Shown one piece after another: positions 2,398 to 6,567 of a DNA stretch of 6,972 bases. How positions within the stretch are numbered: position 1 is the first letter of the stretch; each line of letters starts with the position of its first letter. The translations under genes were made by a program, and so were the position numbers. The notes below the pieces were generated by a model, which was given only the letters and a program-made list of their open reading frames with translations, did not search any database and was not told the DNA's origin. The DNA is from a virus (Duplodnaviria > Heunggongvirae > Uroviricota > Caudoviricetes): IMG/VR virus record IMGVR_UViG_2700989366_000013; one strand, written 5' to 3'.

Positions 2398-2427
2398 TTG
2401 ACCAGACACATTGTCCGGGGCTATATT
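2398..2427 (+). promoter_or_regulatory. candidate late promoter (pR'-like) immediately downstream of Q
   Basis: TTGACC (2398-2403), 18-nt spacer, TATATT (2422-2427), beginning 5 nt after the Q stop codon. This is the expected position of pR' and the qut site in lambdoid phages. Confidence 0.35.
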
Positions 2428-2480
2428 CCTCACGCGCCAGCAAAATCTGGCGTCGGGATTGGAACCCCGGATAGAGACCG

Positions 2481-2503
2481 CGACAGACACACGCCGCGAG
2501 CGT
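2481..2503 (+). terminator. intrinsic terminator (tR'-like) after a short leader
   Basis: Hairpin ACACGC (2481-2486) / GCGTGT (2492-2497) with 5-nt loop, followed by TTTTTATT. It lies about 60 nt downstream of the candidate -10. Confidence 0.45.
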
Positions 2504-2702
2504 GTTTTTTATTGTCGTATGCACGCGCACATCTGAATTATGGTGGGGCGCATGGGGGAGCTGAAAAGCTCGCCGGTCGGTTTCCCGGTAGTTCCAACCC
2601 TGTGCGTCTCACCACCCGATGATTGGAACCTGACGGTGTTGACAGTTTCAGGTTTGCAGTTTACATTTCCCCGCGGTGCTCAAAACACCTCGAAAGCGGT
2701 AT

Positions 2703-2730
2703 CCACACCCGATAGCCATGTGGTTTTTTT
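2703..2730 (+). terminator. weak second terminator-like hairpin plus T-run
   Basis: CCACA (2703-2707) / TGTGG (2719-2723) with 11-nt loop, then TTTTTTT (2724-2730). Short stem, so low confidence. It sits inside the N-terminal extension of the 2676 ORF call, which argues against that start. Confidence 0.25.
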
Positions 2731-2873
2731 GTGTCCAGAATTCTTGGTTTATGACCGGGTGTGCGGCTAATACAATACCAGCAATGGAAATACGCCCGCC
2801 GACTTTCGACGGTTTTGAGCGCCCGGTCACCCTCTCAAAAGGGGTAAATCAAAATATTCGAAAGGACATGTCT

Positions 2874-3437
2874 ATGAATCGCACGTCTATTGAAAAACTC
2901 CCGTCACTTACGCATAACCATCTTCCTGTCATGACAACAGAGCTGCTGGCTGATTTGTACGGAACAGAGCGCCAGCGTTTGACAAACAATTTCAATCGAA
3001 ACAAAGAACGGTTTATAGAAGGTAAACATTTTTTCCTGATAGAAGGTGATGCGTTACGAGAGTTGAAGAACGAAAACTCTTTAAGAGTTTCTGTGAAAAT
3101 TGCCCGTAACGTTCGCTCCCTCATCCTCTGGACAGAACGTGGCGCAGCCCGTCACGCCAAAATGCTCGAAACCGATCAGGCGTGGGAAGTGTTCGAAAAA
3201 CTGGAAGACTGTTATTTCAACCAGAAACAGCCACCAGCGGCACAAAACACATCTATCGAAAATGATGGATGCGCATTACTGAGCCACTTCGATAAACACG
3301 GTCAGGTTGAGTTCACGGAAAAGGTACCCGCCGATGCGATGGTATGTACTCTGGAACGGTTTAAATTTTATCTGGAGCAACACGGGTGGATCGTTGCCCG
3401 TAAAGAGCAACTGGTGGAGCGGTTGATGCGGTTTTAA
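2874..3437 (+). CDS. ORF6N-domain protein (phage antirepressor-like / DNA-binding), about 187 aa
   Basis: The segment LPVMTTELLADLYGTERQRLTNNFNRNKERFIEGKHFFLIEGDALRELK matches the recalled ORF6N-domain pattern (L..LYG.....L...RN.ERF....F.L). Start set at ATG 2874 with AAAGGA (2861-2866) 7 nt upstream; ATG 2868 is in frame two codons earlier. The longer 2676 start would run through a hairpin and T-run and lacks an RBS. Confidence 0.6.
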   Translation: MNRTSIEKLPSLTHNHLPVMTTELLADLYGTERQRLTNNFNRNKERFIEGKHFFLIEGDALRELKNENSLRVSVKIARNVRSLILWTERGAARHAKMLETDQAWEVFEKLEDCYFNQKQPPAAQNTSIENDGCALLSHFDKHGQVEFTEKVPADAMVCTLERFKFYLEQHGWIVARKEQLVERLMRF

Positions 3438-3512
3438 AAATTTTTTCCGAAAACTTTACGATCGTAAAAAGTTGAATATCCTGTTAAGAGTGGTTACTAC
3501 GCCACACAGCTT

Positions 3513-3539
3513 AAACCCGCCGATGAGCGGGTTTTTTTA
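3513..3539 (+). terminator. intrinsic terminator downstream of the ORF6N-domain gene
   Basis: AAACCCGC (3513-3520) / GCGGGTTT (3527-3534) with 6-nt loop CGATGA, running into a 7-T tract (3532-3538). Confidence 0.55.
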
Positions 3540-3588
3540 TACCTGAAAAACGGCACAGGACGTTAAACGTGCTGGTGGTCAGATGAGT

Positions 3589-3617
3589 TTGCAGATGTGA
3601 TGACATATGGTTATTAT
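3589..3617 (+). promoter_or_regulatory. possible promoter for the tRNA cluster
   Basis: TTGCAG (3589-3594), 17-nt spacer, TATTAT (3612-3617), about 10 nt before the first tRNA. The -35 match is weak. Confidence 0.2.
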
Positions 3618-3626
3618 TCTGCCTCC

Positions 3627-3703
3627 GGCCCTTTAGCTCAGTTGGTCAGAGCGAGCGACTCATAATCGCCAGGTCGCTGGTTCAAGTCCAGCAAGGGCCA
3701 CCA
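3627..3703 (+). tRNA. tRNA-Ile2 (anticodon CAU, lysidine type; ileX/ileZ-like); elongator tRNA-Met not formally excluded
   Basis: 77 nt including CCA. Hand-folded cloverleaf: acceptor GGCCCTT/AAGGGCC, D-stem GCTC/GAGC, anticodon loop CTCATAA, T-arm GCTGG-TTCAAGT-CCAGC. Sequence closely resembles E. coli ileX as recalled. Confidence 0.85.
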
Positions 3704-3704
3704 A

Positions 3705-3781
3705 CCACCACTAGCTCATCCGGATAGAGCATCAACCTTCTAAGTTGACGGTGCGAGGTTCGAGTCCTCGGTGGTGGGCCA
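3705..3781 (+). tRNA. tRNA-Arg (anticodon UCU, reads AGA)
   Basis: 77 nt including CCA. Acceptor CCACCAC/GTGGTGG, anticodon stem TCAAC/GTTGA with loop CTTCTAA, T-arm CGAGG-TTCGAGT-CCTCG. Begins 1 nt after the previous tRNA. Confidence 0.85.
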
Positions 3782-3783
3782 GC

Positions 3784-3859
<76 letters not shown>

Positions 3860-3862
3860 TAT

Positions 3863-3937
<75 letters not shown>

Positions 3938-4195
3938 GCGAGATTTGAGACGAAGGTTGTTATTTGCACTGACACAATATTGTGTGGGAATGTCTGACTC
4001 CTTACCATCTCCTGTTCTGTGATGTTGTTTTGTTGCAGTTCCAGTGCTCTTTTTTCAGCACCAGAATGGTGCATTGTCGGTCAGGTTACGTAGTGAACCT
4101 CTGGCAGGGGACTGATGATTCATCATTCTGGTGTTGTAAATATCTCTTCGGACAACTTACAAAATATTCTAAGCAAACCCCGGGAACACACTCTT

Positions 4196-4219
4196 AACTG
4201 CCTTGGCTGGCGGTTTTTT
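4196..4219 (+). terminator. candidate intrinsic terminator
   Basis: AACTGCC (4196-4202) / GGCGGTT (4209-4215) with one G-U pair and 6-nt loop, followed by TTTTTT (4214-4219). It starts within the stop codon of the 3982-4197 ORF. Confidence 0.35.
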
Positions 4220-4550
4220 GTACAGCGCTCGGTATGTGTGAGCTGGAAATCAGATTTTGCATGGACTGGAATCATGCTGTTATTTAGGGGCGAAGAACTG
4301 GCTTTTTCTTCCGCCTTCTCACCAGTAACGATTAGAAAAATAATGAAATGCCCCCCTCCGGGGAGGAGGACCGAAGAAAAAAGGCCCCGCCAGCAAAAAC
4401 ATTGGGGATGAACAGCTTTCGCTACTCAGATTGCTGGCGGGTAAAGTTCCTCATGAATTAAGAATGCTACGCGATCTTTTTTAATGGAAATGAAAATTAT
4501 TGTCAATTAGTCGTGCGTGTTTTTTCATACAATATTGGTAAAGGTGATTC

Positions 4551-4587
4551 AGGCCATCAGAGTTTTGCTGATGGCCTTTTTTCTTTC
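4551..4587 (+). terminator. strong intrinsic terminator in an ORF-free region
   Basis: Perfect 10-bp stem AGGCCATCAG (4551-4560) / CTGATGGCCT (4568-4577) with 7-nt loop, followed by TTTTTTCTTT. There is no T-run on the opposite strand, so it is + strand specific. Confidence 0.55.
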
Positions 4588-4845
4588 CGATAGCACAGGT
4601 CTGTCGGGGGGAAAACGTTTTTTGTACATTGTGGATTTTTACATGCTGATATGATTTATTTTCAATTAAATCAATTAGATATGACCTTGCCTTTAATTTC
4701 ACTAATGAAAGTTTGGGGGTGAGGTAACGCTATAAGCGTAGAGAATTCGGTGTATGTCGTGACCGTGTCATTTACAGCATTTTTGATGCCAGAAAATGTA
4801 CATTAACAGCAGAAAGCACCAGTGAGGGGGGTGCCCCTATTAAGT

Positions 4846-4851
4846 TGTCAA
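4846..4851 (-). promoter_or_regulatory. -35 half (TTGACA) of a predicted circle-junction promoter at the IS right end
   Basis: + strand TGTCAA at 4846-4851 is a perfect TTGACA on the - strand, 6 nt beyond the transposase stop. The next 17-35 nt on that strand (+ coordinates 4811-4829) contain no -10-like hexamer. Confidence 0.35.
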
Positions 4852-4856
4852 GCATG

Positions 4857-6053
4857 TTATGACCCCTGCGGGGTATAAAAAGTCCCGTCGCGCATCATGG
4901 CGAACAGAACGTCGCAGCGTCGTCTCGCCAGGGCGATAAGCGCCTGATTGTGTCGTTTTCCCTGACTCATTTTGCGGGTGTAGTAAGCCCTGGAGAGCGG
5001 ATCCCTGAGCGCGGCGAAGGCCGACAGGAACAACGCCCGTTTGAGAGCTTTATTACCCCGTCGCGAGGGATGCTCACCGCGTATTGACGAGCCGGATCGC
5101 CGAGTTACCGGCGCAAGGCCAGCATAAGCAGCGAGATGTGCGGCAGAGGCGAAGGCGCGGCAGGCGACCTCGGTGAGGAGTCTGGCTGCGGTCCTGACAC
5201 CGACTCCGGGCATACTGGTCAGGACCGGGTAAAGAGGGTGAGCAAGAACTCGCTGTTCTACCTCAAGCGCCACCTCGTCTCTTTGCTTACGCAGCGTGAT
5301 GAGCTGGAGTGCCAGACGTGGCAGTACTACGGCAGCGGCATTCGTGCCGGGAACGACGACGGTTTGTTCGGCCAGTGCCTGAGCTATGTCTGCTGCAAGG
5401 CGTTTACCCAGACGAGGCGCAAGTTTGCAGAGCTGGGCTGCCAGCTTCTTCTCACCCAGCGAAGCGAGTTTTTCTGGTGAGGGATATCGCTGGAGAAGAT
5501 CGAGTACCGCCGGGTGCTCAAGTCTCGGACCGAGAACGCGCTCCAGTGCCGGATGTATCTGGGTCAGAAGGCCGCGGATACGGTTGCTGGCCTGCGTTGT
5601 CTGTGCGGCAAGATCATCATCGAAGCCGCAGAGCATGGAGAGTTCGGCGATTTGCTCGTCAGCCAGTTTCAGCGTGCGTAGCGCGTGAGGCAGGGTACGG
5701 GCAGCTTCGGCAATGATGGCAGCGTCACGAGCATCAGTTTTAGCTTCACCGGCGTGTAAGTCGGCTATGCGGCGCATGGCCAGTCCAGGGAGGTATCCGA
5801 CAAGGACTCCTTCTGAGCGGGCAACGGCGACAGGTAACGCACCGATGGTAGCTGGCTGATCAACAACCAGCAGTATCTGACCATGTTGTTTCAGGTCAGA
5901 TATTAGCGACCTGAGTTTGTTTTCGTCGTTGGGTAATGCTTTATCGAACAGGCGTTTACCTGAACGATTAATGGCAACAGCGTGATGCGTATCTTTACCG
6001 ACATCAACGCCGATAAAGACCTGGACGGATTCGTAATCGCTGGATTCGGTCAT
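4857..6053 (-). CDS. IS110-family transposase/recombinase (DEDD RuvC-like N-terminal domain plus Tnp C-terminal domain), 398 aa
   Basis: N-terminus VFIGVDVGKDTHHAVAI (DEDD catalytic aspartates). C-terminal block MPGVGVRTAARLLTEV...AAYAGLAPVTRRSGSSIRGEHPSRRGNKALKRALFLSAFAAL...QGKRHNQALIALARRRCDVLFAMMRDGTFY is characteristic of IS110/IS116/IS900-type transposases. RBS GGGAGA on the - strand lies just upstream of the ATG at 6053. Confidence 0.9.
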   Translation of the reverse strand: MTESSDYESVQVFIGVDVGKDTHHAVAINRSGKRLFDKALPNDENKLRSLISDLKQHGQILLVVDQPATIGALPVAVARSEGVLVGYLPGLAMRRIADLHAGEAKTDARDAAIIAEAARTLPHALRTLKLADEQIAELSMLCGFDDDLAAQTTQASNRIRGLLTQIHPALERVLGPRLEHPAVLDLLQRYPSPEKLASLGEKKLAAQLCKLAPRLGKRLAADIAQALAEQTVVVPGTNAAAVVLPRLALQLITLRKQRDEVALEVEQRVLAHPLYPVLTSMPGVGVRTAARLLTEVACRAFASAAHLAAYAGLAPVTRRSGSSIRGEHPSRRGNKALKRALFLSAFAALRDPLSRAYYTRKMSQGKRHNQALIALARRRCDVLFAMMRDGTFYTPQGS

Positions 6054-6059
6054 TCTGTC

Positions 6060-6255
6060 TCCCTTGTATATGGGTTAACCAGATAACCACGGGGAGCAGG
6101 TACCGGCATCCACGTTACAGACGGTCCCGGCAAAAGTGCCTGACCTGACCCCTATTAGCGGTTACCAGCGCCCCACCAGACCCGGTGACATCACCCCCCG
6201 GATCATGGACGACTGGGGGCAGTAATCATGCCGGGTCTGGCTGGCTAACACCCCA
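6060..6255 (-). ncRNA. candidate IS110 bridge RNA in the transposase 5' leader
   Basis: About 195 nt, GC-rich, non-coding, between the - strand TATAAT (6255-6260) and the transposase RBS. Contains a perfect 10-bp long-range inverted repeat CCAGACCCGG (6176-6185) / CCGGGTCTGG (6231-6240) enclosing a nested C6/G5 stem (6194-6199 / 6215-6219). Position and size fit the IS110-group bridge RNA; no covariance-model support. Confidence 0.3.
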
Positions 6256-6260
6256 TTATA
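6255..6260 (-). promoter_or_regulatory. -10 half (TATAAT) of a predicted circle-junction promoter at the IS left end
   Basis: + strand ATTATA at 6255-6260 is a perfect TATAAT on the - strand. In the integrated state the position 17 nt upstream on that strand reads CCCGTT, not a -35. Confidence 0.35.
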
Positions 6261-6567
6261 AGGGGTACGAATAAAGTAACGGGGGTTCTTTTATTCTGTT
6301 ATATTGCATTTTTATTCACTTCGGTTTTGTCAGGCTTGCGGAATTAGCGAGCAGAGAGCGCCGTTCTGTTCACCAATAATCTAAATTACTCATCAAAATG
6401 GCTAATATATAATCTTGAAATTATTCTGAGAGTTTCAGAAAATAACAGCTGAAATAATCTCGCGCAAGACTGTAAATAGATTAAATTTTGTGGAAATATA
6501 ATAAGTGATCGCTTACACTACGCGACGAAATACTTTTTTGTTTTGGCGTTAAAAGGTTTTCTTTATT

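Follow-up and report, generated by a model that had tools for sequence, protein, structure and literature searches.

The interval between the antiterminator gene Q and the holin gene S of lambdoid prophages (the Q-S site) houses Shiga toxin, other cargo, and virulence-linked small RNAs (sRNAs), namely AgvB, AsxR, the Pas RNAs, EcOnc32, and STnc100. Pairs of convergent sRNAs are typical of this moron site (Tree et al., PMC4104026; see also PMC8550237 and bioRxiv 10.64898/2026.05.13.724894). EcOnc32, an Hfq-bound RNA of approximately 112 nucleotides (nt), maps to the minus strand at 901574-901662 of enterohemorrhagic Escherichia coli (EHEC) Sakai, within prophage Sp3 (Tree et al. 2014), and PasA and PasC of enteropathogenic E. 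coli (EPEC) E2348/69 are Hfq-dependent sRNAs antisense to the late operon that lie between the moron cargo and the holin gene (Pearl Mizrahi et al. 2021; Zhu et al. 2026 preprint; PMC8550237, bioRxiv 10.64898/2026.05.13.724894). Antitermination by Q of the intrinsic terminators in late operons is likewise established (summarised in PMC7547250). Both insulating terminators and convergent sRNAs are thus features of a known kind at this moron site. Here we analyze a stretch of 6,972 nt from the Caudoviricetes record IMGVR_UViG_2700989366_000013 of IMG/VR (hereafter the window), which is a remnant of a lambdoid prophage, and in particular its positions 3938-4611. These form a noncoding leader lying between a tRNA cluster and the holin gene S. 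It belongs to the late operon of a lambdoid prophage whose antiterminator is QuuD/Q82-like, and it holds no protein gene. The leader is a further, sequence-unrelated version of the Q-S site with the same layout: a plus-strand RNA running to a terminator, a convergent (candidate) minus-strand RNA, and a terminator at a fixed distance from the holin start.

Organization and conservation of the leader

We think it probable that the leader consists of a tRNA-operon trailer hairpin with a terminator (T1), a convergent minus-strand sRNA, and a pre-holin terminator (T2). Its features, together with a site 5' of the tRNA genes, are as follows.

3588-3617, plus strand: promoter-like site TTTGCA-18-TATTAT directly 5' of the first tRNA (scan)
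3938-4051, plus strand: 5' part of the tRNA-Gly 3' trailer, moderately conserved (alignment)
3982-4197, plus strand: 71-codon open reading frame (ORF), GTG start, 71 amino acids, judged spurious
4052-4140, plus strand: conserved long RNA hairpin of approximately 89 nt (RNAalifold, pair counts)
4141-4195, plus strand: A/C-rich linker between the hairpin and T1, predicted to be largely unpaired (fold)
4196-4219, plus strand: intrinsic terminator T1, AACTGCC-TTGGCT-GGCGGTT + T6, 7-bp stem (scan, fold)
4237-4611: Module B, conserved spacer directly 5' of the holin gene in intact prophages
4336-4371, minus strand (4371->4336): second, weaker hairpin with a U-rich tail, a possible read-through terminator (scan, fold)
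approximately 4471->4377, minus strand: candidate convergent sRNA of approximately 95 nt (fold, conservation)
4478-4506, minus strand: candidate promoter, -35 TTGACA at 4506->4501, 17-nt spacer, weak -10 TAAAAA at 4483->4478 (read from the sequence)
4551-4587, plus strand: intrinsic terminator T2, pre-holin, 10-bp stem GGCCATCAG.../...CTGATGGCC + T6 (scan, fold)
4587-4611, plus strand: holin-leader hairpin CCGATAG/CTGTCGG (4587-4607) followed by a G-run

The leader is 99% to 100% identical in nine complete E. coli genomes and 99.7% identical to prophages with an intact holin gene. In these nine genomes, a class II (S21-like) holin gene starts 6 nt past the equivalent of position 4611, and in L001 the holin ATG lies at this distance. 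The Q gene, a pR'/tR'-like element, and the tRNA genes all lie 5' of the leader. The leader occupies the moron position of a lambdoid late operon, as had been proposed in an initial annotation made from the letters of the window, and lies between Q and S. Conservation in related prophages, which that annotation named as a test, was indeed found: among 5426 complete E. coli genomes, to which all genome counts refer, Module A (3938-4236) is present in 233 and Module B in 1428, the latter in 907 chromosomal and 639 plasmid places that include ColV/ColBM plasmids, next to iss. The absence of a convincing protein gene also held (no protein homologue, frames not kept, and 1- to 2-nt indels in Module B), and noncoding RNA was the right category. 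The region does hold further features, which the annotation missed: the hairpin at 4052-4140, the terminator-like minus-strand hairpins 4441->4377 and 4371->4336, the perfect minus-strand -35 hexamer at 4506->4501, and the prophage end at 4611. Its location of the region between the tRNA cluster and the insertion sequence (IS) was slightly off as well, as positions 4612-4832 are not prophage DNA.

A conserved long hairpin in the tRNA-Gly trailer

The hairpin at 4052-4140 has a lower stem of approximately 29 bp, an internal loop on the 3' side (CUGGCAGGG), and a short apical stem. RNAalifold predicted approximately 35 pairs in this hairpin from 33 distinct members. In the alignment, 97.7% of the cells of the 35 pairs are paired, versus 36% to 56% when the two arms are slid to other registers. 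Seven pairs (21 cells) are changed on both sides, versus 2.5 pairs (3.9 cells) in shuffles, and none of 500 shuffles was as good. Approximately 8 of the 35 pairs are predominantly G-U. The plus strand of the window folds at -40.2 kcal/mol (z -5.4) versus -23.2 kcal/mol for the minus strand, and the other two divergent members that were folded gave -42.7 versus -17.2 and -37.7 versus -16.5 kcal/mol, the plus-strand z-scores of the three ranging from -5.4 to -7.9. The many G-U pairs together with this asymmetry of energy therefore identify the hairpin as a plus-strand RNA structure. No Rfam family corresponds to it (whole window searched at E<=1, 3930-4620 at E<=10); in these searches the leader gave only generic miRNA-hairpin and terminator noise.

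The position of the hairpin is conserved relative to genes on both sides. The 3' end of tRNA-Gly lies 178-195 nt 5' of the 3'-arm motif of the hairpin in 97 of 117 occurrences, and in most loci a holin gene, from either of two unrelated families, begins 470-590 nt 3' of the motif. Phages vB_EcoS-683R6 and SerU-LTIIb carry Module A as well, as do more than 100 prophage contigs of IMG/VR. In the GTDB species representatives, E. coli and Shigella flexneri alone have the motif in its prophage context; two more exact matches, in Psychromonas and Acetobacterium contigs, are without similarity to the window and were taken as chance. No hidden or degenerate tRNA was detected in the trailer, as neither ARAGORN nor Rfam gave a tRNA model match in 3938-4200. 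In some contigs of IMG/VR (L028, L029, L050, L067) the hairpin motif or Module B is duplicated, with approximately 1.2 kb between the two copies, and hairpin copies without the 5' arm occur in L028 and L055. Recombination breakpoints inside the element are therefore indicated.

The promoter-like site at 3588-3617, which has a counterpart at the matching position in L001 (TTGCTG/TATCAT), is presumably a Q-independent promoter of the tRNA operon. As this site directly precedes the tRNA genes, we interpret T1 as ending the tRNA operon, with the hairpin belonging to the 3' trailer of that operon, and the linker 4141-4195 would be the single-stranded part of the T1-terminated RNA. 3'ETS-leuZ of E. 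coli is a tRNA-operon 3' trailer of approximately 50 nt that survives as a regulatory RNA. The window trailer resembles it as an RNA between the last tRNA and an intrinsic terminator that tRNA 3' processing could release, and differs in being approximately 280 nt long, dominated by the long hairpin, and phage-borne. RNase III processing hairpins are known from phage transcripts (lambda sib, T7 R1.1, and similar). The likeness of the window hairpin to these is one of shape, with more than 20 bp of near-continuous double-stranded RNA (dsRNA) and an asymmetric internal loop between units of a polycistronic transcript, and there is no sequence relationship. The predicted lower stem exceeds the dsRNA length of an RNase III substrate (approximately 20 bp or more). 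Because the hairpin is long near-perfect dsRNA (>20 bp) with an asymmetric loop, it is read as an RNase III-type hairpin, most likely a processing or stability element of both the trailer and the late transcript.

Terminators upstream of the holin gene

A terminator scan placed plus-strand sites at 4196-4215 and 4551-4577, each followed by a T-run, and found 7 terminator-like sites in 3400-4900 versus 1.5 ± 1.3 in shuffles. T1 has a folding energy of -10.6 kcal/mol (z -3.55), equaled by none of 200 shuffles, and T2 one of -17.3 kcal/mol (z -3.95), equaled by 1 of 200. Both have the G+C-rich stem-loop followed by a U-tract on the transcribed strand that characterizes intrinsic (Rho-independent) terminators. 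A homologue of T1 (...GCC...GGCGG-T7/8) lies 80-190 nt 3' of the hairpin motif in 69 of 71 unique contexts, and most relatives in the hairpin family have a minus-strand terminator opposing T1. Before the holin gene, 43 of 54 distinct S21-type contexts have a plus-strand terminator that ends 40-48 nt upstream of the holin start, and 31 of 31 holin1-type contexts have one that ends 25-28 nt upstream, so that 74 of 85 contexts have a pre-holin terminator at a fixed distance. The 11 misses are all of the S21 type: several have a stem with one mismatch, L046 has an IS before the holin gene, and a few are without an evident terminator. The last approximately 90 nt of the leader, T2 included, are 92% identical to an Stx1d prophage, just 3' of stxB. 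In intact relatives, the G-run before 4611 forms the ribosome-binding region of S. Altogether, as far as folding and conservation can tell, T1 and T2, both pointed out in the initial annotation, are genuine, conserved features, and T2 is part of the holin leader.

The most likely role of T1 and T2 is to keep Q-independent transcription out of the lysis genes. They share with the lambda pR'-tR'/Q and StxS arrangement that intrinsic terminators in the late unit make the lysis genes dependent on Q (PMC7547250). The difference is that T1 and T2 are additional terminators far 3' of the pR'-proximal one, and T2 is tied to the holin start, not to a promoter.

A candidate minus-strand sRNA in Module B

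Close relatives of Module B differ by 1- to 2-nt indels and in homopolymer length, and because of these changes Module B contains no conserved ORF. The 63-amino acid "hypothetical protein" WP_000502162.1 (L002, 5166-5357) spans T2 and is frame-broken in the window. Two "hypothetical proteins" of phage 683R6 (L007, 2590-2907 and 3015-3140) match relatives only as fragments in different frames. The "hypothetical proteins" annotated in the leaders of relatives thus look spurious.

We propose that Module B most likely encodes a convergent minus-strand sRNA of approximately 95 nt. The predicted RNA has a variable 5' third (approximately 35 nt), then a near-invariant branched hairpin CCCGCCAGCAA ... 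TTGCTGGCGGG (4441->4386), and then GCC-U6 (4382->4377). It folds at -32.9 kcal/mol (z -4.04), and its L002 homologue has a z-score of -4.29. We aligned 14 variants, representative of the 16 Module B variants among 17 distinct sequences (the 17th, L011, is without the module). In all 14, TTGACA, the 17-nt spacing, CATTAAAA(A/G), the hairpin, and the U6 tract are kept, with the 5' third variable. The second minus-strand hairpin (4336-4371) is not conserved in the L002-type variant. The initial annotation had suggested a noncoding RNA or an unrecognized small gene in the 330 nt before T2. A plus-strand RNA ending at T2 is not the best reading of this stretch; its conserved promoter- and terminator-like signals point instead to an RNA from the minus strand. 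A plus-strand promoter for a T2-ending RNA was considered and rejected, as its spacing is inconsistent between variants. The minus-strand RNA would be an Hfq-type regulator, by its position antisense to the late leader.

Remnants of Module B were seen approximately 400 nt from iss on ColV/ColBM virulence plasmids, as in pAPEC-O1-ColBM (L009, 3001-3344), and, in strain 83972 (L010, 3001-3348), in a pathogenicity island approximately 2 kb from papI of the pap operon. In both, the holin and endolysin genes are deleted and Rz fragments remain.

Comparison with described prophage RNAs

Like EcOnc32, the candidate would be a minus-strand RNA of approximately 100 nt, immediately 5' of the holin gene and convergent with the late operon. 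It would start, as EcOnc32 does, just 3' of the same ATTATTGTCAAT motif (TTGACA on the minus strand), and would likewise end in a ...GCCAGC.../...GCUGGC... hairpin with a large loop and a U-run. Beyond the 12-nt promoter motif there is no significant sequence similarity, and the loop of the window candidate is branched and 34 nt long. The window thus has the EcOnc32-type architecture, and the architecture only: a minus-strand position between a convergent plus-strand terminator and the holin gene, a candidate promoter of its own, and a U-tailed hairpin. Esr41 (RF02676), to which EcOnc32 itself is a weak relative (32 bits), had no match in the window at E<=10.

The Pas sRNAs, cut from the E2348/69 genome at their published coordinates, were compared with the window by blastn and by local alignment judged against shuffles. 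PasA stops at two successive terminators, which give it a major and a minor 3' end, and GCCAGC is part of its stem, as it is of the stem of the window candidate. Local alignments of PasA and PasC with the window are no better than shuffles (z 0-2.4), with no BLAST match. PasD1 reached a z-score of 3.4, on a short A/T-rich plus terminator stretch only, and gave no significant blastn match. Identity with a Pas sRNA was therefore rejected on both kinds of comparison. The candidate is best described as a positional and architectural analogue of EcOnc32 and PasA/PasC, not as a demonstrable sequence homologue.

On the other strand, STnc100, PasD, and EcOnc13 (plus-strand RNAs ending at a terminator that faces a convergent sRNA) have the position and polarity of the T1-terminated RNA. 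L002-type relatives carry a true STnc100 (RF02076, 114.5 bits) at the corresponding place, and the stretch from the hairpin 3' arm to T1 of 683R6-type relatives (L007), which is longer than that of the window, gives a weak STnc100 match (22.9 bits, E 0.28). The window has no match to this family at E<=10 (gathering threshold 47 bits); its hairpin-to-T1 stretch is only approximately 80 nt, and the long hairpin lies outside the STnc100 model. In L002 (4698-4907), STnc100 ends facing a minus-strand terminator, just 5' of Module B, that is near-identical to the 3' end of PapR, an sRNA of uropathogenic E. coli (UPEC). PapR of UPEC UTI89 had been suspected as a relative given the Module B copy near papI in strain 83972, and was rejected, as this RNA of approximately 180 nt is encoded elsewhere in prophages. 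Only the PapR-like 3' terminator piece adjoins Module B, in L002-type relatives, and none is found in the window. Full-length PapR lies beside a structural gene. The conserved 3' region (approximately 42 nt) of the anti-sRNAs AgvB, AsxR, and EcOnc03 (GUAUCUCAUGC...UUGCCCGAACCCAYUCGGGC) had no match in the window or in the loci retrieved for comparison, and the holin upstream regions of the K-12 prophages DLP12 and Qin are not homologous to the leader.

Altogether, the tRNA-Gly-linked hairpin and the Module B candidate RNA appear to be an undescribed sequence family, absent from Rfam 15 and from the EcOnc and Pas sets that were compared. They add two unannotated conserved elements to this site, one a covariation-supported hairpin (233 of 5426 genomes) and the other a candidate sRNA locus (1428 of 5426, including the ColV/ColBM copies next to iss). 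A bolder proposal, which we offer as speculative and on balance doubtful, is that the approximately 89-nt GU-rich hairpin represents a new phage-encoded structured-RNA family, coupled to tRNA-Gly(UCC) and set at a fixed distance before the lysis cassette whichever holin family this contains, and that with the convergent minus-strand RNA it forms an unrecognized regulatory module in hundreds of E. coli and Shigella prophages. On this proposal, the hairpin could be an RNase III-dependent switch that ties the output of tRNA and trailer RNA, or the stability of late mRNA, to lysis timing, or a stable decoy RNA, and not just a site of passive processing.

Proposed mechanism and alternative explanations

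In our model, the tRNAs would be transcribed from their own promoter, and the transcript, including the trailer hairpin, would stop at T1. RNase III-type processing at the hairpin would release or protect the trailer RNA and would separate the tRNAs from downstream RNA in read-through transcripts. Facing T1, the sRNA would be made from the minus strand, from the TTGACA promoter to the U6-tailed hairpin (4441->4377), and would hold the place that EcOnc32 and PasA/PasC have in EHEC and EPEC prophages. In a lysogen, T1 and T2 would halt polymerase that is not modified by Q and comes from the tRNA or the moron and cargo promoters, leaving the lysis genes silent. After induction, Q-modified polymerase from pR' would pass both T1 and T2, as expected from what is established for lambdoid Q proteins (PMC7547250). 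If expressed, the two elements would enlarge the catalogue of prophage regulatory RNAs and would offer a testable model for the silence of lysis genes in lysogens despite constitutive tRNA and moron promoters. The comparison also flags two likely false gene calls, the 71-codon ORF of the window and WP_000502162.1 of its relatives.

The 71-codon ORF does exist as the initial annotation described it, and its TAA stop codon overlaps the first base of the T1 stem, which was taken there as a sign of a real small gene or leader. Small accessory genes are common at the moron position, and the ORF ends at the foot of T1; even so, it is hardly credible that this ORF (or its 45-codon version) is a real small gene or a leader peptide with its stop codon fused to T1. 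The homology search that had been asked for returned no homologue of the product among 5.8 billion protein clusters. Read from the sequence, neither start (...cacaatatt GTG, ...caccagaATG) is preceded by a purine-rich Shine-Dalgarno sequence, the lack of an obvious ribosome-binding site having been noted already. In the alignment, relatives of approximately 70% identity have a 2-nt indel that interrupts the ORF. Among 69 distinct family members, the frame-2 ORF is found essentially only in near-identical window-type copies and the others have frame-0 ORFs with variable ends, so that neither the frame nor the boundaries are kept. Most of the ORF is overlain by the hairpin, and compensatory changes in those same bases preserve RNA pairing. 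The hydrophobic, Cys/Trp-rich character of the peptide is a by-product, because the UGU, UGC, and UGG codons arise from the GU-rich hairpin arms. The ORF is thus not a real gene, and the overlap of its stop codon with T1 is coincidental. It is also very improbable that the long hairpin works as DNA (a recombination site, an IS target, or a replication element) and not as RNA. It is an inverted repeat within a mosaic region with recombination breakpoints, and L028 and L055 contain only its 3' half; yet the approximately 8 of 35 pairs that are predominantly G-U would turn into A-C mismatches on the opposite strand, folding is strongly strand-asymmetric, the repeat is imperfect as DNA, and the ISEc20 insertion site lies elsewhere, at the G-run at 4611. 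Seen as an RNA, the hairpin owes its proposed RNase III role to its shape.

Several points weigh against the minus-strand RNA and against the reading as a whole. The -10 element TAAAAA is without the conserved final T and fails the rule of the scan, and the minus-strand terminator has a branched loop of 34 nt, which is unusually large. Covariation cannot pick a strand, since the Module B hairpin core hardly varies, and the two informative variants split, L141 favoring the minus strand and the ColBM plasmid copy the plus strand. There is no significant similarity to PasA/C/D, AgvB/AsxR, Esr41, or STnc100, and for this sequence and its close relatives the minus-strand RNA is a prediction from sequence. 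Module B (4237-4587) might instead act only in the plus strand, with no minus-strand gene, either as the structured 5' leader of holin mRNA or as an sRNA that ends at T2. In that case the inverted repeat 4386-4396/4431-4441 would have its role in the late transcript, where it might be a site of processing or of protein binding. The plus strand is certainly transcribed in lytic growth, its fold over 4226-4615 has a z-score of -2.3, T2 is strong, the ColBM variant retains its stem only through a G-U pair on this strand, and the 4350-4371 hairpin of the L002-type variant also pairs better there. We nevertheless consider this improbable, if not negligibly so: no plus-strand promoter is conserved (TTGTCA-TACAAT has a spacing of 22 nt here versus 15 nt in Stx1d and Sp3), the invariant U6 tract lies 3' of the inverted repeat on the minus strand only, the invariant TTGACA with its 17-nt spacer lies 5' of the repeat on that strand, and the Sakai RNA detected experimentally at this position is from the minus strand. 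Somewhat less unlikely is that the stretch is, in this genome, inert debris of a decayed prophage that has not yet been deleted, which is compatible with former functions in the intact phage. Here the leader is a remnant, because the holin gene and everything downstream of it have been lost, all late genes included; the prophage abuts the chromosome at 4611/4616 beside an IS, and the 5426 complete genomes do not contain this junction. The operon being truncated, a present-day function in this genome is doubtful. Against decay, the 99% to 100% identity to copies in intact prophages means that the signals are undamaged, and, with (predicted) promoters of their own, the tRNA genes and the two candidate RNAs can do without the lysis genes. 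We retain the trailer hairpin with T1, the convergent sRNA, and T2 as the probable organization of the leader.

The prophage end and ISEc20

The region 3' of the leader contains the following.

4612-4832: junction filler AAAA, then 217 nt of chromosomal alaE-stpA intergenic DNA (4616-4832)
approximately 4833-6286: ISEc20 (IS110 family)
from 6568: stpA

The prophage sequence ends at 4611; alaE is missing 5' of stpA in the window. The junction between the prophage leader and alaE-stpA DNA was found in 0 of the 5426 E. coli genomes and in none of the GTDB species representatives. In the window, ISEc20 lies after the G-run GTGAGGGGGG (4827-4833) in the alaE-stpA intergenic region. Elsewhere, in S. 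flexneri SFBU1023, E. coli ECMA0423, and seven IMG/VR contexts (loci L267, L270, L100, L034, L046, L051, L067, L072, and L080), ISEc20 follows GTCGGGGGG, at exactly the position that corresponds to 4611 and immediately 5' of the holin start. The prophage/chromosome junction of the window falls at this same G-run (4606-4611). The insertion of ISEc20 after G-runs and the position of the junction at the same G-run therefore suggest an ISEc20-related rearrangement, which may have removed the lysis genes and alaE. On the minus strand, 6054-6290, 5' of the ISEc20 transposase, is the long noncoding end of an IS110-family element; judging from published work on IS110/IS621, a bridge (guide) RNA would have its coding sequence there.

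Genomic context of the leader

The part of the window 5' of the leader contains the following features.

1-1392: DnaB-like helicase gene
1646-2017: RusA gene
1986-2393: QuuD/Q82-like antiterminator Q
2421-3437: P1 immI-type antirepressor module (isrK-like, c4-target, and C4-like RNAs; KilAC-type ORF)
2421-2473: c4-a1b1 (Rfam match above gathering score)
2434-2510: isrK (Rfam match above gathering score)
2536-2619: C4 antisense RNA (Rfam match above gathering score)
2753-2836: sRNA-Xcc1 (Rfam match above gathering score)
3' of the Rfam matches, ending at 3437: KilAC-type ORF
approximately 3467-3540: short promoter/terminator element resembling one upstream of essD in DLP12
3627-3937, plus strand: four tRNA genes, CAT, Arg-TCT, Thr-TGT, and Gly-TCC (ARAGORN; Rfam tRNA matches)

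The module that resembles the P1 immI antirepressor region sits directly 3' of Q. The element at 3467-3540 ends in the terminator AAACCCGCCGATGAGCGGGTTT + T7 and is closely similar to sequence 5' of essD in K-12 DLP12, where its counterpart (L143) lies approximately 170-105 nt upstream of essD and the Q type is the same (quuD). This element may be the pR'/tR' unit of a QuuD-type Q. The first tRNA (3627-3703, anticodon CAT) was called tRNA-Met by ARAGORN, and the tRNA at the same position in RefSeq relatives is annotated as tRNA-Ile (lysidine type).

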